Source: Candidatus Saganbacteria bacterium (GTDB lineage Bacteria; Margulisbacteria; WOR-1; O2-12-FULL-45-9). From it: a DNA stretch of 64,000 nt. Both the position numbers and the translations under genes were made by a program. Where the stretch lies: assembly GCA_016219705.1 (NCBI GenBank), contig JACRKQ010000053.1:6793-70792 (forward strand), given 5' to 3'. The number at the start of each line of letters is the position of its first letter. Positions within the stretch are counted from its first letter, which is position 1. The notes beneath the pieces were generated by a model. That model ran no database searches, was not told where the DNA came from, and saw only the letters and a list, made by a program, of their open reading frames with translations. Shown one piece after another: positions 4,404 through 63,864 of this stretch.

Positions 4404-5414
4404 TTATAGACGCAAGCTGGCAACAGGGGAGAGGGATAATGACGAATGACTAATGACTAATGACGAATTAATGAATTTATAATACCCAGCACAGCCAATC
4501 ATGGCTGCGTTATCAGTACAATATTCAAAGGGAGGAATTATTACTTCCAGCCCTTCTTTCTGACCTCTTTTTTGTAATCGACTCCTTAAGCTGGAATTGG
4601 CCGAGACGCCGCCGGCGAGGGTGACAATTTGGACGTTGCGATCTTTGGCCGCGCGAATGGTTTTCTCTACCAGCGTTTCGACGATGGCTTCCTGAAAACT
4701 AGCGACGAGGTCTGGAACTTGTGAAGCGTGAAGAGTGAGGCGTGAAACGTAATTTACAACCGCTGTTTTGATTCCGCTGAAACTGAAATCGTAACCCTGG
4801 TCCATCATAGGGCGGGGAAATTTGATGGCGGCTGGATTTCCTCTCTTGGCCAACTTATCAATAACCGGTCCGCCGGGATAACCCAAACCCAAAAAACGAG
4901 CGACTTTATCAAACGCTTCTCCCGCCGCATCATCCCGAGTCCGGCCCAGCGTTTCATATTCTCCATGACCTTTGACGAGAATAATCATTGTGTGCCCGCC
5001 GGAGACTAATAAACTAATAAAGGGAAAACTTAGAATTTTAGATTTAGAGTTTAAGAAGTTGGCGTATATGTGTCCTTCAAGATGGTTAACTTCAACCAGC
5101 GGGATTTTTCTTCCCCAGGCAATGGCTTTAGCTGCGCAGAGCCCGACGAGGAGGGAGCCGACCAAGCCTGGGCCATAAGTTACGGCAACGGCATTTATGT
5201 CGCCAAACCCAACGTTGGCTCTTTCCAGCGCTTCTTTAATGACCGGATTGATCACTTCAATATGTTTGCGAGCGGCAACTTCGGGAACAATCCCGCCATA
5301 TTTTTTATGAAATTCAATTTGCGAGGAGATGACGTTGGAAAGAACTTCCTGTCCGTCTCTGACAACGGCGGCGGCGGTTTCGTCACAGGATGTTTCGATG
5401 GCTACTATAAACAC
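4404..5414 (-). CDS. tsaD: tRNA N6-adenosine threonylcarbamoyltransferase
   Basis: Kae1/TsaD motifs (IETSCDETAAAV, SLLVSGGHT, DDAAGEAFDKVAR, AGGVSAN); contains heptamer-repeat-derived segments. Confidence 0.85.
   Translation of the reverse strand: MFIVAIETSCDETAAAVVRDGQEVLSNVISSQIEFHKKYGGIVPEVAARKHIEVINPVIKEALERANVGFGDINAVAVTYGPGLVGSLLVGLCAAKAIAWGRKIPLVEVNHLEGHIYANFLNSKSKILSFPFISLLVSGGHTMIILVKGHGEYETLGRTRDDAAGEAFDKVARFLGLGYPGGPVIDKLAKRGNPAAIKFPRPMMDQGYDFSFSGIKTAVVNYVSRLTLHASQVPDLVASFQEAIVETLVEKTIRAAKDRNVQIVTLAGGVSANSSLRSRLQKRGQKEGLEVIIPPFEYCTDNAAMIGCAGYYKFINSSLVISHSSLSLSPVASLRL
4437..4478. repeat. heptamer array (TAATGAC/GAATGAC)x4 plus degenerate units, 42 nt, encoding the C-terminal tail of tsaD
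   Basis: Direct reading of sequence. Confidence 0.85.
4721..4755. repeat. heptamer array GTGAAGC GTGAAGA GTGAGGC GTGAAAC inside tsaD
   Basis: Direct reading. Confidence 0.8.
5021..5048. repeat. irregular TTAGANT ~7-nt tandem repeat inside tsaD
   Basis: Direct reading. Confidence 0.6.
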
Positions 5415-6478
5415 AGCAGAGGAACCTCCTTTTTGGACAATGACAGTGGTCGGGCATCACGCTGGCCCAGGAAGACGTCGGGGAAGATATCAAGGGGCCA
5501 ACCCAGTTCGTTCAAAGAAAGGGAAAAATAATTAGTGGCATTATAGGCAAAATCGCCGTAGGAATGGTAGGCGTAATGTAAACTGACGCCGGCGTAATGG
5601 AAAGTTGCTCCGTAAGTGAAATTATTGGTCAAGGTCGAGCTCTGCGGGTCCTGGTCGACGCCGGCGCGTAAAGTTAAAAATGGATTAGGCGCAAATTCAA
5701 TTCCGGTATGGATGGTTGTCGATTTGGCTGTTTGCAGACTTACATTGGCGTCGGCCGCGATGGAGAGATCAACCGGCGCATAAACAGCCGCTTTTAATTC
5801 TTCGCCCAAGAGAAAAAACCGGGAGCCGATTTTTATTGAGAGAGGTAGATTTTCTCCCTGGGAATTTGCGATGATTTTACTAGAACTGAAGAGATTTTGG
5901 CCGACAACGCCAAAGCTAAACGGACCAACTCCCTGCTGCAGCAAACCGACGTCCAGGTTCCAGCAGCTGCCGGAGCCGGCGCTGACTTCATAGCCATTCT
6001 GGGTATAATATTTCAAGTTAAGCCCCCAGGAGAAGCGTTCATTAAGACGGCGGCCGAACGAGAGGAAGATAACGCTATCGTTGAAAGAGGTTGTTGATTT
6101 TGGTAAAACGCTGGCCGAATCCCTGATTTCAATTCCTCCGATATTGGCGCCGACATAACCCAGCCCGATGGCGCTCTGCTCGCCGAGAGGATAAACGCCG
6201 CCTAGCAGAGAATAAGTGACATCCTCCATGACATTGGCTGACATTGAGAGGAGTTCAAAAGCGTCGATACCGCCCAATCCAGCTGGATTGCTGAAAATAG
6301 TATCAGCGGATTCTCCGACCGCCACGTATGCTCGTCCCATTCCCAGCGCGCGGGCGCCAACGCCGATGGTGAGAGGATCAAAGGTTGTTTGGGCGGCAAC
6401 AACACTGGGAAGAAATGACAAATGACAAATGACAAATGACAAATGAAGGAATCGCTTCGCGATATTATAATAATTCAT
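5405..6478 (-). CDS. secreted outer-membrane beta-barrel protein, PorV/PorQ/FadL-like
   Basis: N-terminal signal peptide followed by GARALGMGRAYVAVGESADTIFSNPAGLG (FadL/PorV-family N-terminal signature), alternating beta-strand pattern, aromatic C-terminus; family assignment from memory only. Confidence 0.4.
   Translation of the reverse strand: MNYYNIAKRFLHLSFVICHLSFLPSVVAAQTTFDPLTIGVGARALGMGRAYVAVGESADTIFSNPAGLGGIDAFELLSMSANVMEDVTYSLLGGVYPLGEQSAIGLGYVGANIGGIEIRDSASVLPKSTTSFNDSVIFLSFGRRLNERFSWGLNLKYYTQNGYEVSAGSGSCWNLDVGLLQQGVGPFSFGVVGQNLFSSSKIIANSQGENLPLSIKIGSRFFLLGEELKAAVYAPVDLSIAADANVSLQTAKSTTIHTGIEFAPNPFLTLRAGVDQDPQSSTLTNNFTYGATFHYAGVSLHYAYHSYGDFAYNATNYFSLSLNELGWPLDIFPDVFLGQRDARPLSLSKKEVPLLCL
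6413..6452. repeat. (AAATGAC)x4 + AAATGAAGGAAT terminus, antisense within signal-peptide codons of PorV-like gene
   Basis: Direct reading. Confidence 0.9.
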
Positions 6479-13758: not shown

Positions 13759-13798
13759 AAATGACAAATGACAAATTACAAATGACAAATGAAGGAAT
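13759..13798. repeat. AAATGAC AAATGAC AAATTAC AAATGAC + AAATGAAGGAAT in efp-accB spacer
   Basis: Direct reading. Confidence 0.9.
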
Positions 13799-13803
13799 TT
13801 ATT

Positions 13804-16950: not shown

Positions 16951-18650
16951 TGCGCAAAAAGTGGTTGATTCATCCGGAGAGTCAGTTAGTGCGACAATTA
17001 GCGGACGAATTAAATATCTCTGCTATTACGGCCCAAATTCTGATCAATCGCGGCATTAATAATCCGGCCCAAGCCCAGGTTTTTCTTCAACCTAAATTAA
17101 TCAATTTGTCCGATCCTTTTGAAATTCCCAATATAAAACAGGCGGCCGAACGGGTTTTATTGGCTAAAGAACGCGGGGAAAAGGTTTTGATTTTTGGAGA
17201 TTATGATGTTGATGGGGTGACCGGCACGGCCATTCTGCTGCAGACGCTCAAATTCCTGGGGCTGGCCCCTTTACATTATATACCGCACCGCTACGATGAA
17301 GGCTACAGCCTGTCGCTTGAAGCAGTGGAAAAAATCGCGGCTGACGGGGTAAAGCTTATTATCACCGTAGATTGCGGGACCTCTAATTTTACAGAGATTA
17401 CCCGAGCGCGTGAATTAGGGATGGAAGTGGTGGTAACTGATCATCATAATTTATCTCGACAAGTCCTGCCGGCGGCGGCGATTGTTAATCCCAAATTCAT
17501 GGCGCAAGACCATCCGGCGCGGAATCTGGCAGGGGCGGGGGTCGCGTTTAAGTTTGCTTGGGCTCTTTTGCGGACGGCGGGGATAAAAGAGAGCGCCTTT
17601 CTGGCTTCTCTTCTTGATCTGGCGGCTTTGGGGACGATTGCCGATATTGTCCCTCTGGCGGAAGAAAATCGGATTATCGCTGTCCGCGGGTTAGCCCAGC
17701 TCAACCAGCGCCAGCGTGTCGGTTTAAGACATTTATCTGATGTGGCCGGCCTGCCCGAGAGGGTGACGGTCGAACATGTCAGTTTTTCCCTGGCGCCGCG
17801 GATCAATGCGGCGGGCCGTTTGGAGCACGCCAATAAAGCGCTGGAGCTAATGTTGACGGCTGATGAATCTCAAGCCCAAGAGCTGGCTGGCGAATTAAAT
17901 TCAATAAATATAAAACGTCAGGATATAGGCAGCGGCATCAAGTCAGCGGTCTTCGGGCAATTAACCGATCATATTATGGAGGACGAGCCGTTAATTGTTT
18001 TAAGCGGGGATAATTGGCATCCTGGAGTAATTGGCATTGTTGCTTCGCAAGTGGTCGATCGCTTTTCCCGTCCGACGATTTTGATTGGTGTTTATGATGA
18101 AGTGGGACGGGGTTCGGCGCGGTCATTAGCTGGGATTAATATTTATAATCTACTTAATTCCTGCAGCGATCTCTTTGAAACTTTTGGCGGACACGCCGGG
18201 GCGGCGGGTTTTGAAATTAAAACTGATAAACTGACTGAATTGACCAGCCGCTTAAAAGAGGCGGCGCAGATATCTTTAGCGCCTGAAGCTTTGATCCCTA
18301 AACTGATGATCGATATGGAATTACCGACCCAAACCTTAACATTAACGCTGGCAAAAAAGTTGGAAATATTTGCTCCTCATGGAGAAGGGAATCCTCAACC
18401 GCTCTTTTTAAGCCGCCAACTTCGCTTAATCGATCAACGGACTGTCGGCCGGGACAATCGGCATTTGAAATTAAAATTATCTGATGGAATTGCTCATCTT
18501 GATACCATTGGCTTTGATTGTGGCCACTTGGCCGGCCAATTAGTGGCTAATGCCTGTTATGATGTTGTCTATCGACTGGAGTCCAATGAATGGAATGGAT
18601 TTGAGAATGTCCAGCTTAACCTGGCGGATATTAGGGAGGCTAAATCATGA
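16950..18650 (+). CDS. recJ: single-stranded-DNA-specific exonuclease RecJ
   Basis: DHH (GDYDVDGVTG, VTDHH) and DHHA1 motifs, 566 aa. Confidence 0.85.
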   Translation: MRKKWLIHPESQLVRQLADELNISAITAQILINRGINNPAQAQVFLQPKLINLSDPFEIPNIKQAAERVLLAKERGEKVLIFGDYDVDGVTGTAILLQTLKFLGLAPLHYIPHRYDEGYSLSLEAVEKIAADGVKLIITVDCGTSNFTEITRARELGMEVVVTDHHNLSRQVLPAAAIVNPKFMAQDHPARNLAGAGVAFKFAWALLRTAGIKESAFLASLLDLAALGTIADIVPLAEENRIIAVRGLAQLNQRQRVGLRHLSDVAGLPERVTVEHVSFSLAPRINAAGRLEHANKALELMLTADESQAQELAGELNSINIKRQDIGSGIKSAVFGQLTDHIMEDEPLIVLSGDNWHPGVIGIVASQVVDRFSRPTILIGVYDEVGRGSARSLAGINIYNLLNSCSDLFETFGGHAGAAGFEIKTDKLTELTSRLKEAAQISLAPEALIPKLMIDMELPTQTLTLTLAKKLEIFAPHGEGNPQPLFLSRQLRLIDQRTVGRDNRHLKLKLSDGIAHLDTIGFDCGHLAGQLVANACYDVVYRLESNEWNGFENVQLNLADIREAKS

Positions 18651-19948
18651 AGATAATGGTTGTCGGTTCCGGCGGCCGCGAGCACGCGCTGATTTGGAAA
18701 ATCAAGCAGAGTTCAGTCGTTGCAAAAATTTATTGTGTGCCGGGGAATGCCGGAACAGCGGAACTGGCGGAAAATGTGGAGATTAAAGCGGATGATATTA
18801 ACGGTCTGCTGAAATTTGCCAAAGAACAAAAAATCAATCTGACTGTTGTTGGTCCCGAAGTGCCGTTGGCGGCCGGCATAGTTGATTTGTTCAACAAAAA
18901 TGATTTAAGGATTTTTGGCCCGTCTGCGGCGGCAGCGCGGATTGAGGGGAGCAAAGTTTTTGCTAAACAATTTATGGCTAAATATGGCATTCCCACCGCC
19001 CAATCCGGGATCTTCGCTGATAAAAAAAAGGCAAAAGCTTACATTAACATGATGGGGGCGCCGATCGTGGTCAAGGCCGATGGTTTAGCGGCGGGGAAGG
19101 GGGTCGTCGTCTGCCAAACAGTTGAGGCGGCAAATCAGGCGGTTGAACTTATTATGGAGAAAAAAGAATTCGGCCAGGCCGGGGCGCAGGTTGTCATTGA
19201 GGAGTGTTTGATCGGGGAAGAATCTTCGATTATTGCTTTAACTGATGGCGAAACAATTGTTCCTCTGGCTTCATCTCAAGACCACAAACGGATTTTTGAT
19301 AATGATGAGGGACCAAATACCGGAGGGATGGGAGCGTATTCACCGGCGCCGGTTGTGACCGATGGTTTAATGGAACAGATTAATAATGAGGTCCTTCTCC
19401 CCTTCGTCCAAGGAATGAAACAGGAGGGGATTGTTTACAAGGGAGTTATTTATGCTGGAATTATGGTTACAAAAGCGGGGCCGAAGGTTTTAGAGTTTAA
19501 TGCCCGTTTTGGCGATCCGGAAACCCAACCGATCATGATGCGGCTCAAGAGCGATCTTGTCCCGATTCTTGAAGCAGTGATAGACGGTAAATTAGCCGGC
19601 CAAAAAATTATTTGGGACGAACGAGCGGCGGTCTGTGTCGTTTTAGCGGCGGGAGGCTATCCGGGGAAATATGAGACTGGTTTGCCGATCACCGGATTAG
19701 ATAAAGTTCATCAGGTTGCTAAGGCTTATGTTTTTCATGCGGGAACGAAAATAGAGGATAGAACAGAGAAGACAGAACACAGACTACAGATATCAACTAA
19801 TGGCGGCCGCGTTCTTGGCGTGACAGCGTTAGGCGATTCGCTCAAATTTGCTATCGACAAAGCTTACCAGGCTGTCTCATTAATCAATTTTAAAGGCATG
19901 CATTACCGGAAAGATATCGGTGGGAAGGCCCTGAAGCTGGTTCGCTAA
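18647..19948 (+). CDS. purD: phosphoribosylamine--glycine ligase
   Basis: Full-length PurD (ATP-grasp; MKIMVVGSGGREHAL, TNGGRVLGVTALG); carries a 42-nt heptamer-array insertion. Confidence 0.9.
   Translation: MKIMVVGSGGREHALIWKIKQSSVVAKIYCVPGNAGTAELAENVEIKADDINGLLKFAKEQKINLTVVGPEVPLAAGIVDLFNKNDLRIFGPSAAAARIEGSKVFAKQFMAKYGIPTAQSGIFADKKKAKAYINMMGAPIVVKADGLAAGKGVVVCQTVEAANQAVELIMEKKEFGQAGAQVVIEECLIGEESSIIALTDGETIVPLASSQDHKRIFDNDEGPNTGGMGAYSPAPVVTDGLMEQINNEVLLPFVQGMKQEGIVYKGVIYAGIMVTKAGPKVLEFNARFGDPETQPIMMRLKSDLVPILEAVIDGKLAGQKIIWDERAAVCVVLAAGGYPGKYETGLPITGLDKVHQVAKAYVFHAGTKIEDRTEKTEHRLQISTNGGRVLGVTALGDSLKFAIDKAYQAVSLINFKGMHYRKDIGGKALKLVR
19753..19794. repeat. (AGANNNC)x6 heptamer array, 42 nt in-frame in purD
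   Basis: Direct reading. Confidence 0.85.
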
Positions 19949-20258: not shown

Positions 20259-20329
20259 GGGAGTGTCGGTTAATGGTAAACCACTGGTCTCCAAAACCAG
20301 GACTGGGGGTTCGAGCCCTCCCACTCCCG
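20259..20329 (+). tRNA. tRNA-Trp (anticodon CCA)
   Basis: Hand-folded cloverleaf: acceptor GGGAGTG/CACTCCC, D-arm GGTT-AATGGTA-AACC, anticodon arm CTGGT-CTCCAAA-ACCAG, T-arm GGGGG-TTCGAGC-CCTCC; canonical rpmG-tRNATrp-secE-nusG context. Confidence 0.8.
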
Positions 20330-22296: not shown

Positions 22297-22827
22297 ATGG
22301 CCAACGCAAAAGTTATTGATAAAAAACAACAGCTTGTCGATCAGCTCAAGGAAAAAATTGAGAAAGCCCGGGTTCTGGTCATTTCTGATTATCGCGGCGT
22401 GACAGTCTCTGAAATTACTGGATTGCGCCGCAAATTGCTGAAAGAAAAATCGGAATTTAAAATTGTAAAAAATACACTGTTGCAACGCGCTCTGGCGGCC
22501 AGCGGCTTTACCGATTTAGACCAGCATTTAAGCGGTCCGACCGCGATTCTCTTCGGTTATCAGGATCCGATTGCCCCGATAAAATTGCTGGTTGAGTATG
22601 TTGAAGAGATTGAAAAAGGCCAGGTTAAGGGCGGCATCGTTGAACGCCGAGTGGTCGACATCAAAGGGATTGCCGCGCTGTCGAAATTGCCGCCTAAAGA
22701 AGTCTTAATTGCCAAAGTGATTGGTGGTTTTAAGTCACCGCTTTATGGTCTGGTAAATGTGCTCCAGGGCAATATCCGTAAATTAGTTTATGTTTTTAAT
22801 GCTGTTAAGGATAAAAAAAGTAGTTAG
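22297..22827 (+). CDS. rplJ: 50S ribosomal protein L10
   Basis: Homology pattern and position between rplA and rplL. Confidence 0.85.
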   Translation: MANAKVIDKKQQLVDQLKEKIEKARVLVISDYRGVTVSEITGLRRKLLKEKSEFKIVKNTLLQRALAASGFTDLDQHLSGPTAILFGYQDPIAPIKLLVEYVEEIEKGQVKGGIVERRVVDIKGIAALSKLPPKEVLIAKVIGGFKSPLYGLVNVLQGNIRKLVYVFNAVKDKKSS

Positions 22828-22857
22828 TTGTGAGTTGTAAGTTAATTGAGAAAGGAA
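22821..22857. repeat. TAGTTAG TTGTGAG TTGTAAG TTAATTG + AGAAAGGAAGG in rplJ-rplL spacer
   Basis: Direct reading. Confidence 0.7.
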
Positions 22858-22867
22858 GGTGAAAAAG

Positions 22868-50557: not shown

Positions 50558-50597
50558 GAATGACTAATTCCTAATGCCTAATGTCTAATGAAGGAAT
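50558..50597. repeat. GAATGAC TAATTCC TAATGCC TAATGTC + TAATGAAGGAAT filling spacer upstream of truA
   Basis: Direct reading. Confidence 0.9.
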
Positions 50598-51364
50598 TGC
50601 TTCACGATGTTATCTTATTTATTCAATACGATGGGACCAACTTTGCCGGTTTTGAATTGCAACCTGGCCAGCGCACCATTCGCGGAGAACTGGAAAAAAC
50701 CCTGGCCAAAGTTTACCAACAAAAAATATCAATTATTTCTGCTGCTCGGACTGATGCTGGGGCGCATGCTTTAGAAAATGTGGTCAGCTTTAAGGCCAAA
50801 AATAGTATTCCGCTTGATAAAATACCTACAGTGTTAAATACTGTTCTCCCACGGACCATCAGAATTATCAAGGCTGAAAAAAACAATGGTCATGTCCGCC
50901 ATGATGCTAAAACAAAAATTTACGAATACTTAATCTTTAATGGGGAAAACCTTCCGCCGCAGTTAAATCATCTGGTCTGGCAGGTCGGGCTCCCGCTTAA
51001 TCTCACGGCGATGAAAAGAGCGGCAAGATATCTAGTTGGCAAACACGATTTTTCTTCGTTTTGCGCGGCCCATTCAGATGATAAGGACTTTGTCAAAAAA
51101 ATACATTCATTTGACATTTGTTCCGCCTTAGGCGGATCATTTGTCATTTGGGGTGGAGTGAAGTATCGTTTGATCAGAATCCGCGTGACCGGCGACGGTT
51201 TTTTGTACAAGATGGTCAGAAACATTGTCGGAACTTTAGTTTGTGTTGGCTTAGGAAAGTTGACTGTGGCTGATGTCAAAGGGATCCTGGAAGCTAAAGA
51301 TCGCCAAAAAGCGGGTAGAACTGCGCCGGCACAGGGGTTGTGCTTGGTGAAGATTCGCTATTAA
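50588..51364 (+). CDS. truA: tRNA pseudouridine(38-40) synthase
   Basis: IQYDGTNFAGFELQ, RTDAGAHAL catalytic Asp motif; start ATG lies inside the heptamer-array terminus. Confidence 0.85.
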   Translation: MKELLHDVILFIQYDGTNFAGFELQPGQRTIRGELEKTLAKVYQQKISIISAARTDAGAHALENVVSFKAKNSIPLDKIPTVLNTVLPRTIRIIKAEKNNGHVRHDAKTKIYEYLIFNGENLPPQLNHLVWQVGLPLNLTAMKRAARYLVGKHDFSSFCAAHSDDKDFVKKIHSFDICSALGGSFVIWGGVKYRLIRIRVTGDGFLYKMVRNIVGTLVCVGLGKLTVADVKGILEAKDRQKAGRTAPAQGLCLVKIRY

Positions 51365-59058: not shown

Positions 59059-61923
59059 CTGGAGTACAAACAAACCCTCAATCTGCCCCAGACCGCTTTT
59101 CCCATCCGCGCTAATTTGCAAAAAATTGAAGCGGATTTGCTGGCGCATTGGGAAAATCTTGACCTCTATCAGCAAATTCAAGCCAAGAATAAAACAGCCG
59201 CTAAAAAATTTGTTTTGCATGACGGCCCCCCTTATCCTAATGGCGATATTCACCTTGGCCATGCTTTGAATAAAATCATCAAAGATATCATTATTAAATA
59301 TAAATCGATGCAGGGCTTTGCCTCTCCCTATATCCCCGGTTGGGACTGTCACGGTTTGCCGATCGAAACACAGCTGATCAAGCAGTTGACAGATGAAGAG
59401 CGCAAAAAATATAAAGAGCCGAATAAAAAAGTTGAGTTTAGGAATAGGTGTAAAGAATATGCCTTAAAATATGTTGACTTGCAGCGCCAGGAGTTTAAAC
59501 GCCTGGGAGCGCTTGGCGACTGGGAAAACCCATATTTAACGATTGATCCTCTATATGAAGCCGACATAATTCGCCTCTTTGGGGATTTGGCCGAAAAAGG
59601 TTATGTTTATCGCGGCTTAAAACCGATTCACTGGTGTCCGCATTGCGAAACGGCATTGGCGGAAGCGGAATTGGAATATGAGGAGGATAAGTCGCCGTCA
59701 ATCTACGTCAAATTCGAAATCCGAAATCCGAAATCAGAAATAAATTCCAAAATTAAAAATCCAAACTTGCCAACTGATTTGCCCTGGTTTTTTGTCGTTT
59801 GGACGACGACGCCGTGGACTCTGCCAGCGAACATGGCGATTGCAGCGCATGCGGAATACGAGTACGTATTTATTAATGTCAAATGTCAAATGACAAATGA
59901 CAAATATCGGAATGAAATTTATATTGTTGCCGAAGGTTTGCTGGAAGATTTTGTAAAAAGAGTCGGGATTACAGATTATCAAATCATTGATAAGACCAAA
60001 GGGGAATATTTAGAAGGCGTTGTCGCTAAACATCCCTTTATTGATTGCGACGTTATGCTCGTCTTGGATGAATATGTCACCCTGGAGCAGGGGACGGGCT
60101 TGGTACATATTGCTCCAGGACACGGAATTGAAGATTATAAAGTTGGTCTAAAATATAAATTGTTCCCCATTGTCATGCCGGTTACGGCTGATGGGCGCTT
60201 TGACGAAACGGTCCCGGAATTTATCCGCGGTGAATTTTATAAGAAAGCGAATGACTTAATTATTGAGCAACTCAAAAATGGAGGAAGTTTTCTCAGGTTA
60301 GAGAACATAAAACATTCTTTCCCTCATTGCTGGCGCTGTAAGAATCCCGTTATTTTTCGGGCAACCGAGCAGTGGTTTGTTTCTGTTGATCATCTTGGAA
60401 TGCGCGAGAAGGCATTGAAGGCCATTATTGATACAAAGTGGTATCCGGCTTGGGGAGAAAATCGGATTCGCGGGATGGTAGAAACCCGTCCGGATTGGTG
60501 TATCTCTCGTCAGAGAACCTGGGGGGTGCCGATTCCGGTTTTTTATTGTGATAAATGTCACCAGCCGTCAATGACCGGAATTTTTAATGAATCAATCCGC
60601 AAAATTGTTTTAGAACGGGGGACGAATGGTTGGTTTGATTTGTCAGCCAAGGAGATTTTGCCGTCGGGAACAAAATGTTCAAAATGCGACGGCGATTCTT
60701 TTACTAAAGAAACCGATATTCTCGATGTCTGGTTTGAATCAGGCTCGTCTCACGCGCTGCTGGAGCGCTTGCCGGATCATCATTGGCCGGCGGACTTATA
60801 TCTTGAGGGTTCTGATCAGCATCGCGGTTGGTTTCAAAGTTCTTTATTGATTGCTGTGGGATATAAAGGGAGGGCGCCGTTTAATTCTGTCCTGACTCAT
60901 GGCTTTACCATTGATGATAAGGGAAAAAAGATGAGCAAATCCCTGGGCAATGTCATCGGTCCGCAAGAGGTGGTTAAAGAATATGGAGCGGATGTTTTGC
61001 GTCTCTGGGTTGCGTCGACAGATTTTCGCAACGATATGGCGGCGTCAAAGAATATTCTAGTTCAGGTCAGAGAGGCCTATTCAAAAATTCGCAATACCTG
61101 CCGTTTTTTAATCAGTAATTTATATGATTTTACCCCCTCCTCCGACGTGCGTCGGAGTCTCCCCCTTGAAAAGGGGGAGAATGAGAGGGGGTTGCTTGAA
61201 CTTGACCGTTGGATACTTTTGCGCTTGAATCGATTAATTGAGAGGATAATCCAATCTTACGACGAATATGAACTGCACGTTGTTTATCACGCTCTTTATG
61301 AATTTTGTGTAAACGATCTCTCGGCTCATTATCTCGATATGTCCAAAGATCGGCTGTATTGCGACGGTAAAAGTTCGCCAGAGCGACGCTCGGCCCAATT
61401 TGCGATGTGGGAGATATTGTTTGCCTTAGTTGGAATGATGGCCCCTGTTCTCTCCTTTACGGCGGAAGACATCGGGCGGCATATGGCGGCAATGACTAAT
61501 GACAAATGCCTAATGCCTAATGAAGGCAGTATCTTTTTATCAAACTTCCCTAAAATTAAGGAAGAATATTTAGATAAAGAGTTAGAAGCTCGCTGGGAAA
61601 AGATTATGGTTTTGCGAGCGGAAGTTTATAAAGTGTTGGAAGAGAAGCGGGCCAATAAAATTATTTCGGCTTCGATTGAAGCCGTTGTGGAGATTGGCTT
61701 GCAGGGTCGGGAATGGCTGAAAGCTGTTGATCCCAAAATTCTCCCGATGGTTTTAATTGTTTCCCAAGTCAAATTGGTCGACGGAGATAAAATCGCAGTA
61801 AGTAAGGCGTCTGATCAAAAATGCGGCCGTTGCTGGATGTTGCTCCCGACGGTGGGGAAGAGCCATCAACATCCGGATTTGTGTGAGCGTTGTGAAAAGG
61901 TTGTCAGGGAATTGACAGGGTAA
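59059..61923 (+). CDS. ileS: isoleucine--tRNA ligase (probable CTG start; the ORF track begins at TTG 59116)
   Basis: HLGHALNK (HIGH), KMSKS, C-terminal zinc finger CGRCW...CERC; conserved N-terminus EYKQTLNLPQTAFP is encoded upstream of the called start. Confidence 0.85.
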   Translation: MEYKQTLNLPQTAFPIRANLQKIEADLLAHWENLDLYQQIQAKNKTAAKKFVLHDGPPYPNGDIHLGHALNKIIKDIIIKYKSMQGFASPYIPGWDCHGLPIETQLIKQLTDEERKKYKEPNKKVEFRNRCKEYALKYVDLQRQEFKRLGALGDWENPYLTIDPLYEADIIRLFGDLAEKGYVYRGLKPIHWCPHCETALAEAELEYEEDKSPSIYVKFEIRNPKSEINSKIKNPNLPTDLPWFFVVWTTTPWTLPANMAIAAHAEYEYVFINVKCQMTNDKYRNEIYIVAEGLLEDFVKRVGITDYQIIDKTKGEYLEGVVAKHPFIDCDVMLVLDEYVTLEQGTGLVHIAPGHGIEDYKVGLKYKLFPIVMPVTADGRFDETVPEFIRGEFYKKANDLIIEQLKNGGSFLRLENIKHSFPHCWRCKNPVIFRATEQWFVSVDHLGMREKALKAIIDTKWYPAWGENRIRGMVETRPDWCISRQRTWGVPIPVFYCDKCHQPSMTGIFNESIRKIVLERGTNGWFDLSAKEILPSGTKCSKCDGDSFTKETDILDVWFESGSSHALLERLPDHHWPADLYLEGSDQHRGWFQSSLLIAVGYKGRAPFNSVLTHGFTIDDKGKKMSKSLGNVIGPQEVVKEYGADVLRLWVASTDFRNDMAASKNILVQVREAYSKIRNTCRFLISNLYDFTPSSDVRRSLPLEKGENERGLLELDRWILLRLNRLIERIIQSYDEYELHVVYHALYEFCVNDLSAHYLDMSKDRLYCDGKSSPERRSAQFAMWEILFALVGMMAPVLSFTAEDIGRHMAAMTNDKCLMPNEGSIFLSNFPKIKEEYLDKELEARWEKIMVLRAEVYKVLEEKRANKIISASIEAVVEIGLQGREWLKAVDPKILPMVLIVSQVKLVDGDKIAVSKASDQKCGRCWMLLPTVGKSHQHPDLCERCEKVVRELTG
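59715..59749. repeat. (CGAAATC)x3 plus degenerate units inside ileS
   Basis: Direct reading. Confidence 0.85.
59874..59915. repeat. TAATGTC AAATGTC AAATGAC AAATGAC AAATATC GGAATGA, 42 nt in-frame in ileS
   Basis: Direct reading. Confidence 0.9.
61133..61191. repeat. 59-nt GC-rich nested palindromic element inside ileS: outer stem CCCCCTC/GAGGGGG enclosing two perfect hairpins
   Basis: Inner hairpins: CTCCGACG-tg-CGTCGGAG (61140-61157) and TCTCCCCC-TTGAAAA-GGGGGAGA (61158-61180). Confidence 0.8.
61490..61526. repeat. CAATGAC TAATGAC AAATGCC TAATGCC TAATGAAGG in ileS
   Basis: Direct reading. Confidence 0.85.
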
Positions 61924-63814: not shown

Positions 63815-63856
63815 AAATGACAAATGCCAAATTACAAATGACAAATGAAGGAAGAA
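63815..63856. repeat. AAATGAC AAATGCC AAATTAC AAATGAC + AAATGAAGGAAG downstream of ahcY
   Basis: Direct reading. Confidence 0.9.
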
Positions 63857-63864
63857 TTATTATA

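Follow-up and report, generated by a model that had tools for sequence, protein, structure and literature searches.

Dispersed heptanucleotide arrays in a Candidatus Saganbacteria contig, probable orphan arms of widespread PF05635 (four helix bundle) cassettes

The window considered here, a stretch of 64,000 nt from a Candidatus Saganbacteria contig, includes rpoB/rpoC, a ribosomal protein operon, efp-accB, truA, ileS and ahcY, and scattered among its genes are seven short tandem arrays of the heptanucleotide (A/T/G)AATG(A/T/C)C, all read from the plus strand. Three of these are intergenic forward copies, at the efp/accB and aminotransferase/truA junctions and between ahcY and the last open reading frame (ORF); two are in frame in ileS, one is in the tail of tsaD and one makes up the N-terminus of a PorV-like protein (Table 1). 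An earlier note on this DNA had described a dispersed family with a conserved end, lying both in leaders and inside essential genes. Tandem heptads are indeed present at all seven of its loci, namely 4437-4478, 6413-6452, 13759-13798, 50558-50597, 59874-59915, 61490-61526 and 63815-63856, and coding copies are found in ileS, the tsaD tail, truA and the PorV-like N-terminus. Tandem Repeats Finder assigns period 7 to every one of the seven, and the window contains nine period-7 arrays vs. 0.15 in dinucleotide shuffles, an enrichment of about 60-fold; when periods 4 to 15 were scanned, none but 7 was enriched, except for the harmonic 14. A profile hidden Markov model built from copies outside the window recovers exactly the seven loci, at E-values of 1e-10 to 1e-2, along with one weak hybrid copy on the minus strand inside truA, and this search and the enrichment over shuffles show the family to be genuine. 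An assembly artefact is an unlikely source of the arrays; the ileS-site element is in frame at the identical site in independent JGI, ENA and NCBI assemblies. Rfam, searched at its gathering threshold, gives no match at the arrays, the sole match in the window being a tRNA at 20259-20329.

Each window copy consists of four N-AATG-N-C heptads and a fifth, degenerate terminal unit (AATGAAGGAAT), after which some copies have a short GC hairpin and then an AT-rich box; the range of three to six units per array that had been reported does not hold. The exact 10-mer AATGAAGGAA occurs four times in the window, each time closing the 3' end of an array. The terminus reads AATGAAGG(A/C)A in five of the seven copies, and for these it is the same terminus or a close variant, as claimed; the ends at 4437 (AATTAATGAATTT) and 59874 (AAATATCGGAATGAA) are clearly divergent. 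GC skew is positive over the whole window, including a stretch of minus-strand genes, so that all seven arrays lie on the G-rich strand.

The same module is found in other genomes. One genome per species was scanned for the pattern AATGNCNAATGNCNAATGAAGGAA, which matched 75 loci where about one would be expected by chance (our own estimate from the pattern length and the size of the collection, not from a shuffle). All 75 come from metagenome-assembled genomes (MAGs) that bear the labels of more than 10 phyla, the labels including Saganbacteria, Margulisiibacteriota, Patescibacteria, Deltaproteobacteria/Desulfobacterales, Planctomycetota, Omnitrophota, Calditrichota, Acidobacteria, Kiritimatiellae and Chthoniobacterales (both of the Verrucomicrobiota), NC10, Hydrogenedentota, Bacteroidales and Clostridia. 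The phylum labels of MAG titles are to be taken with care, since mis-binning is suspected: the "Gammaproteobacteria" MAG HYP3_UM_18, of about 1x coverage (loci L010, L024, L030 and L045), is near-identical around the element to the Deltaproteobacteria MAG Meg19_1012_Bin_272 (L003 and L025), which suggests mis-binning or cross-sample contamination. In the copies anchored at the terminus (n = 78), information is high over four heptads and is zero exactly 28 nt upstream, and the two heptads outside the search pattern still keep AATG and C, with both N positions free. Counts of good heptads before AATGAAGG in the 85 outside copies are two in 26, three in 15, four in 42 and five in 2, never more. 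The active repeat-generating mechanism suggested in the earlier note finds no support in these numbers, with the units fixed at 4+1 in the window and reaching at most four, rarely five, outside it, nor in the units of a single array, which also differ from each other at both N positions; the note's other term, a mobile micro-element, is a fair description.

In many copies the terminus is followed by a hairpin with a GC stem of 5-8 bp and a 3-nt loop. The stems vary with compensation between genomes (ATCGC/GCGAT, ATCGCC/GGCGAT, ATCCGCC/GGCGGAT, TGTCCGCC/GGCGGACA), and an AT-rich box (TATTATAAT-like) comes after the hairpin. The module occurs as solo arms, as convergent doublets without an ORF, and as the flanks of PF05635/TIGR02436 genes. 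Array pairs no more than 250 nt apart are convergent in 14 cases, tandem in 4 and divergent in none; in the doublets the heptads lie outside and the termini, hairpins and AT box inside. For the doublet in the related Saganbacteria locus L076 the predicted fold is a long, imperfectly paired stem (-48 kcal/mol, z = -6.8). IMG/VR viral contigs contain no match to the module and thus give no sign of a phage vector.

The genes that such arms enclose belong to PF05635/TIGR02436, also called "23S rRNA intervening-sequence protein", S23p or four helix bundle, which is the family of Avd, the accessory protein of diversity-generating retroelements (DGRs). At locus L036, a 118-aa ORF lies between a forward arm with its terminus and a reverse arm, and it matches PF05635 at 4e-13 and TIGR02436 at 1.4e-20. 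A jackhmmer search over the six-frame ORFs of 78 loci (556 kb) and the window finds PF05635-like ORFs only in L036, L043 and L072, each of which begins directly after a forward arm and is followed by a reverse arm. The arms in front of these three genes are AATGNCN x4 with a AATGAAGG-type terminus; that of L043 runs AATGCCT AATGAAG AATGCCG AATGCCT AATGAAGGAAT, hairpin, GTTATTAT-ATG, and corresponds to the window copy at 6413 unit by unit, with terminus, hairpin and AT box included. In L043 and L081 the gene has an arm in front and a full doublet behind it. The cassette of L072, an Omnitrophota MAG, lies between two tRNA genes and its ORF is frameshifted; in the same stretch (1960-2860) a heptad doublet precedes the first of the tRNA genes, and the complete cassette stands between that gene and the next. 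Homologues of the L043 protein are nearly all annotated "four helix bundle protein", and many are on contigs of 1-3 kb, as multi-copy elements are.

A gene of this kind is also recorded for the source contig. The window IleS is 100% identical to MBI5399850.1, from an 86,928-nt contig of a Candidatus Saganbacteria MAG (its next relatives, also from Saganbacteria/Margulisiibacteriota, are 68% identical). The four helix bundle protein MBI5399869.1 (P0134) is recorded on the same 86,928-nt contig, outside the window, under an accession 19 numbers past that of IleS, and is 75% identical to the L043 protein. It matches PDB entry 2rld, which has five chains, at 1.9e-19. Look-ups by exact protein sequence with the window's AccB, with IleS (P0001) and with P0134 gave no hit.

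The association was also approached from the protein side, with 13 PF05635 genes picked by protein similarity alone, ten of them on complete plasmids and the other three in MAG loci. Nine of the plasmids are from cultured strains (Nostoc flagelliforme, N. punctiforme PCC 73102, Anabaena cylindrica, Aulosira, Dolichospermum, Planktothrix, Pseudanabaena, Treponema saccharophilum and Bernardetia) and the tenth from a non-axenic, near-pure Chlorohelix enrichment culture. In 11 of the 13 genes both flanks carry period-7 arrays within 200 nt, whereas 5 of 1520 random control segments (0.3%) are so flanked. Plasmids of Nostoc, Aulosira, Dolichospermum, Planktothrix, Treponema and Chlorohelix are included in this two-sided set, and the flanking arrays are inverted, as judged by eye, in most of the 11. 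The units are AATTNCG in L079 and L081, AATTCAA in Nostoc flagelliforme and Aulosira, AATTCGC or AATTCGT in N. punctiforme and Dolichospermum, AATCCCC or AATCGTA in Planktothrix, ATGAAGG in Chlorohelix and of GGAAAGT type in Treponema. Four is the commonest unit number beside these genes, and the closing unit in front of the ATG is as a rule degenerate, with a Shine-Dalgarno (SD) sequence (AATTAAGGTAT, AATTTGGAGC, AATATGAAGG, GAATGAGGAGGG). Within the Nostocales, proteins of AATTCAA pairs are 77% identical and those of AATTCG(C/T) pairs likewise 77%, vs. about 55% across types; heptad type thus tracks the lineage of the PF05635 protein and not the host. A 40-kb stretch of Nostoc plasmid (L091) contains one flanked gene, ORF-less doublets (one of them of TAACTGA type) and solo four-unit arrays.

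Some further features of these plasmids may be recorded here. AATTACG x4 occurs solo on the Nostoc flagelliforme plasmid (L091 5459-5488 and 27720-27750) and as cassette arms in the Margulisiibacteriota MAGs L079 and L081. The four helix bundle gene lies between cas2 and cas1 on plasmid pANACY.01 of Anabaena cylindrica PCC 7122 (L085) and directly upstream of cas1 on the Pseudanabaena galeata plasmid (L094). Other copies, in L089, L090, L093 and L091, stand between helicase/methylase genes, in islands that look like restriction-modification or defence.

The evidence links heptad arrays physically to PF05635 cassettes, with orphan arms from Saganbacteria to Nostoc, and we consider the window arrays to be, in all probability, orphan left arms of such widespread cassettes; they are arms and not cassettes, since the window has no PF05635 ORF. 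A complete cassette consists, in order, of four N-AATG-N-C heptads, the degenerate purine-rich unit AATGAAGGAAT, often a hairpin and AT box, the ATG and an ORF of about 120 aa, and an inverted array. Solo arms and ORF-less convergent doublets would be its non-autonomous derivatives, related to it as miniature inverted-repeat transposable elements (MITEs) are to transposons. The terminal unit would act as the ribosome-binding site of the cassette, and a solo arm caught between packed genes could serve the downstream host gene in that capacity (accB, final ORF). Copies would persist only where they are tolerated, at gene junctions, in surface loops, in protein tails and, as the reverse complement, in hydrophobic signal peptides, and in coding copies the in-frame TGA codons would have been mutated away. 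Paired arms would form an RNase III-type stem in the RNA, as in ribosomal intervening sequences, and the five heptads may be a putative platform for a pentamer, one unit per subunit. Avd is a pentameric, positively charged barrel of PF05635 fold that binds RNA and the DGR reverse transcriptase, and the Xanthomonas S23p is a homopentameric toroid; by analogy, the agreement between five subunits and 4+1 heptads is suggestive. The spread of the arms and the role of the pentamer are inferred.

A number of observations weigh against deriving the arrays from cassettes. No PF05635 ORF was found in the window by jackhmmer or tblastn, and the profile search of the window found no reverse partner arm near any copy; all seven are left arms on one strand, which simple cassette decay would not lead one to expect. 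MBI5399869.1 is a protein record, and arms flanking its gene are putative. The L036 protein is only 28-29% identical to the L043 and P0134 proteins despite near-identical AATGACT arms, a mismatch that makes a strict co-evolution of heptad with protein less likely and would fit cassettes inserting into pre-existing arrays. There were no target-site duplications at the 14 doublets or at junctions compared filled vs. empty, and all-against-all clustering of 496 ORFs from array-bearing loci revealed no recurrent transposase, other recombinase or other linked family. Array length beside PF05635 genes is not always four, reaching about 27 units in L083 and about 8 in L090, and the binding of a pentamer to the arms is putative. 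Finally, the heptads at tsaD 4721, ileS site 1 and truA 51107 take the place of native sequence, which plain insertion fails to explain.

The arrays might instead be an independent element of the MITE or REPIN (hairpin-forming repetitive extragenic palindrome doublet) kind, moved by a transposase or HUH enzyme, into or beside which PF05635 cassettes insert, for example at the AT-rich centre of a doublet. We regard this as unlikely, for all that doublets with outer inverted arrays do resemble MITEs, small hairpins of variable GC sequence adjoin the terminus, the arms of L036 are unchanged beside a very different protein, and L043 and L081 have their full doublets in addition to an arm. Such an element would also suit the preference of the forward arm for the G-rich strand, seen in all seven window copies (two in minus-strand genes included), at 40 of 63 loci elsewhere (p = 0.04) and at 31 of 42 with |skew| > 0.03 (p = 0.003), which may be a replication-strand bias and is confounded with gene orientation. 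The lack of target-site duplications and of a recurrent neighbouring transposase among the 496 ORFs counts against it as well, however, and it does not lead one to expect that heptad type follows PF05635 lineage within the Nostocales or that 11 of 13 PF05635 genes are flanked by arrays left and right. Slippage, giving neutral heptanucleotide microsatellites of the kind known as short tandemly repeated repetitive (STRR) sequences or long simple sequence repeats (LSSRs), is a very improbable origin. Heptamers are the commonest long simple repeats in prokaryotes according to Mrazek 2007, as summarized in PMC4679880, and in Coxiella their number differs between strains; here, in contrast, the unit number is fixed at 4+1, the units of one array differ at the N positions and not at AATG/C, the terminus, hairpin and AT box recur across distant phyla, and the doublets are strictly convergent. 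Hardly any probability attaches to a DNA-binding platform that organises or partitions the chromosome independently of PF05635, for a ribbon-helix-helix protein (omega/ParB_pSM-like) or another. The omega protein of pSM19035 binds contiguous 7-bp units, WATCACW, direct or inverted, at least four being needed, and its unit is one base off (AATCACA vs. AATGACA); its setting is one of plasmid partition and promoters with a ribbon-helix-helix partner, whereas no evidence for such a partner gene was identified here, copies lie inside essential coding regions and not in par or promoter contexts, and the linkage to PF05635 would be left unexplained.

It is also improbable that the arrays are leaders for translation initiation or insulation, in which the array halts ribosomes in three frames and the terminus restarts them through its own SD, the whole spreading as something useful in compact operons. 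ATG and TGA recur every 7 nt in the forward units, so that an array holds starts and stops for each of the three frames. AAGGA stands 7 nt (GGA to ATG) before the likely accB start and 11 nt before that of the final ORF (ATG 63864), and at the ahcY junction, where stop and start are only 5 nt apart in L076, the wedged-in arm has displaced the old SD. The TAACTGA heptamers of Beggiatoaceae, moreover, directly precede start codons (PMC4679880). Against this, a long ORF starts 3-13 nt after GGA in only 4 of 83 copies, the arm has the same orientation as co-directional flanking genes in 27 intergenic cases and the opposite one in 18 (of 45), and copies are also found in coding regions and as inverted doublets. 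Because of the start and orientation counts, SD supply appears to be an occasional service and not the element's raison d'être, and the earlier picture of the terminus as a dedicated supplier of start sites is not supported. That note had the terminus provide both SD and ATG to accB, truA and the final ORF. As the ATG within the terminus lies upstream of AAGGA, a single copy cannot supply both; the terminus plausibly serves as SD for accB and the final ORF. The accB start is more likely ATG 13804 than an ATG in the terminus (in the longer accB ORF, the alignment to the biotin carboxyl carrier protein model begins at residue 10), the final ORF has its own ATG, and truA, alone among the three, may use the in-terminus ATG 50588 or TTG 50597. 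The terminus is best read as the ribosome-binding (SD-like) unit of the cassette itself, and at tight junctions it is likely that only arms with a usable SD survive.

Other candidates were considered and set aside. A sigma-70 promoter (ATGAAG, 17 nt, TATAAT) fits the hairpin variant only and, at 6413, would yield transcripts antisense to the gene. An intrinsic-terminator reading fails on the stems, which have no more than 5-8 bp and are missing from most copies, and adenine mutagenesis of DGR type as the source of the variable positions is contradicted by the conservation of both A's of AATG. The heptamer sites of cold-shock proteins (GTCTTTT-like) serve as an analogy only, and so do the operators of omega and other ribbon-helix-helix proteins.

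Comparison with the related Saganbacteria shows arms that are present in one genome and absent from another. In L076 the aminotransferase/truA and ahcY/final-ORF junctions are each 5 nt long and have no array, and L076 carries a doublet upstream of the aminotransferase where the window has none. The ileS element at 61490 is also present at the identical site in L076 and L077, and in the ileS DNA of the three species the four heptads and AATGAAGG have been kept between codons that have diverged. When more than 100 Margulisiibacteriota IleS proteins are aligned, the three array sites fall in loops that are hypervariable. Peptides derived from the element (MTNDKCQMSNEC, MTNDKFQMTNEG, KMKNDLMKNEG and others like them) turn up at site 3 in scattered clades, and neighbouring lineages have other heptad-derived peptides or none at that loop. 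Along these IleS loops generally (window 59116-61923; P0002-P0120), peptides from several heptad families (EIRNPKSEINSK, QMTNVKCQMKD, SEILNQKSEANSNFENSNFDIASSFDIRN) are distributed patchily on the tree, and some resemble in-frame insertions of an entire inverted doublet. A metagenome scan with IleS peptide patterns gave no relative, and one with a two-anchor efp-accB pattern for unit-number variants gave no match, the source population being outside that collection.

Table 1. Heptad arrays and related features of the window
Coordinates	Strand	Feature	Composition
4437..4478	+	solo arm, divergent terminus	TAATGACG AATGACT AATGACT AATGACG + AATTAATGAATTT
4721..4750	+	GTGAAGC heptads inside tsaD (aa 222-232, gene on minus strand)	four units
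6413..6478	+	most complete solo arm	four AAATGAC heptads + AAATGAAGGAAT + hairpin + AT box
13759..13803	+	solo arm, efp stop (13756) to accB	four heptads + AAATGAAGGAAT + TTATT
19760..19790	+	AGAnnnC heptads inside ORF 18647-19948	about 4-5 units
22819..22858	+	nAGTTGT heptads	four units, then TTGAGAAAGGAAGG
50558..50597	+	solo arm, aminotransferase stop (50556) to truA	
51107..51150	-	weak hybrid copy inside truA	two heptads + hairpin + two heptads + AAATGAATG
59710..59741	+	AAATCCG heptads in frame in ileS (KFEIRNPKSEI)	four units + AAAT
59874..59915	+	in-frame ileS copy, aa 253-267, INVKCQMTNDKYRNE	
61490..61526	+	in-frame ileS copy, aa 792-804, AMTNDKCLMPNEG	four heptads + AATGAAGG
63815..63863	+	solo arm, ahcY stop (63812) to final ORF (ATG 63864)	four heptads + AAATGAAGGAAGAA + TTATTAT

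Among the coding copies of the window, that at 4437 runs antisense to the 3' tail of tsaD, a minus-strand gene, and encodes a non-conserved C-terminal extension, KFINSSLVISHSSL. The 6413 copy has a hairpin with a 5-bp stem and a 3-nt loop (ATCGC-TTC-GCGAT) followed by the AT-rich box ATTATAATAATTCAT, and the PorV-like gene (5405-6478, minus strand) takes its entire signal-peptide-like N-terminus from the reverse complement of the element, with the AT box, hairpin, terminus and heptads all contributing to the leader. An orthologue in a WOR-1 MAG (L005 798-2441) has a leader derived from the same element (NYYINIAKRFLHWSFVIFNLSLL), and it appears that a repeat arm was recruited here as a signal peptide. 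The hybrid copy in truA, whose hairpin is TCCGCC-TAA-GGCGGA, encodes IHSFDICSALGGSFVIW, a stretch whose L076 counterpart is shorter by only 3 aa. The 59874 copy occupies an IleS loop that has no insertion in most homologues, with the in-frame TGA changed to TGT/TAT; the coding copies in general have lost their in-frame TGA.

The 23S rRNA intervening sequences of Coxiella, Leptospira and Xanthomonas, which are regarded as selfish elements, are like the cassette in having a PF05635-family ORF bracketed by stem-forming inverted repeats. That of Coxiella has an SD-like AGAAGA, three GACAGAT heptamers and a degenerate fourth, then the S23p ORF; the heptamer number is strain-dependent, and the stem has been found experimentally to be cut by RNase III. 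GACAGAT is a rotation of AGATGAC, which is one base off AAATGAC of the window family. Unlike these, the window copies are outside rRNA, between or inside protein genes, have neither ORF nor partner arm, and are fixed at 4+1.

The likeness to the STRR-type heptamer repeats of cyanobacteria drawn in the earlier note holds. The host phylum, Margulisiibacteriota, is usually placed as a close relative of the Cyanobacteria. The STRR sequences of cyanobacteria were reportedly described by Mazel in 1990. Heptanucleotide LSSRs such as GGGNATC of Xanthomonas and Nostoc (PMC4692102) are, like the window arrays, dispersed tandem 7-nt units that are mostly intergenic. STRR-like arrays flank PF05635 genes on Nostoc, Planktothrix and Dolichospermum plasmids, and the Planktothrix unit AATCCCC, read on the other strand, is GGGGATT. 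The window module differs from STRR in its host, which belongs to the Saganbacteria and is not a heterocystous cyanobacterium, in its unit AATGACN, in its fixed length and in its defined terminus. The TAACTGA repeats of Beggiatoaceae, Cyanobacteria and Bacteroidetes (MacGregor 2015, PMC4679880) are 2-6 tandem heptamers, many before starts and some in ORFs, patchy across phyla and with no known mechanism of transfer; a doublet of this type is the one noted above on the Nostoc plasmid. They differ in unit, no link to a terminus or cassette is described for them, and they are mostly forward before genes, while the window family is mixed. Geobacter metallireducens has four GGACCGG or five MTYCTGA heptanucleotides in about 49 copies between and within genes (PMC2700814), with a GC-rich unit and a reading as regulatory RNA or regulator sites. 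MITEs, REPINs and Rickettsia palindromic elements are similar as short non-autonomous dispersed repeats occurring as inverted doublets and singlets, with in-frame insertions tolerated; the arms here are heptads, show no target-site duplication, have no recurrent transposase (or REP-associated tyrosine transposase, RAYT) among the ORFs near them, and go with the gene for a four helix bundle and not a recombinase.

Neither the motif itself nor a link between heptanucleotide repeats and PF05635 was met with in the literature searched, beyond the Coxiella observation, most subscription journals being outside that search, and the accessible papers on STRR-like heptanucleotide repeats do not mention the cassette. 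Such a link bears on two decades-old puzzles, the commonness of heptanucleotide repeats and the role of four helix bundle proteins outside DGRs. For annotation, it would explain odd start calls ("MKE" starts), short IleS insertions and repeat-derived signal peptides, and contig breaks may stem from the arms, many PF05635 genes being on very short contigs.

Of the further heptamer families listed in the earlier note, GTGAAGC, AGAnnnC, nAGTTGT and AAATCCG are present (Table 1), and for TTAGANT no tandem array was found in the window. The nAGTTGT array is directly upstream of ATG 22867 (the listed ORF begins at GTG 22859), and its layout of four units with an SD-bearing end parallels the AATGAC arms. 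Any kinship of the tsaD GTGAAGC array with the AATGAC family would be conjectural. The peptide type of the ileS AAATCCG loop is common to many Margulisiibacteriota IleS proteins.

In truA (51107-51150), tsaD (4721-4750) and ileS site 1 (59710-59775), a native stretch has been replaced with a change in length of +3, 0 and about +1 aa, respectively. About 12 codons would be expected had the heptads simply been added, and on the alignments these cases look more like overwriting than insertion. A rather doubtful extension of the cassette reading is that an Avd-like pentamer and five-heptad arms make up a self-propagating system, perhaps with a reverse transcriptase or other polymerase, which writes heptad patches of 36-40 nt into DNA. 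If so, short coding stretches would be overwritten with little change in length, and the system would be a general source of the heptanucleotide excess of prokaryotes (STRR, TAACTGA, GGGNATC and the Geobacter elements). A separate intergenic repeat in L076 (8237-8371), with 2.9 copies of a 47-nt tandem unit, is unrelated to the heptads.

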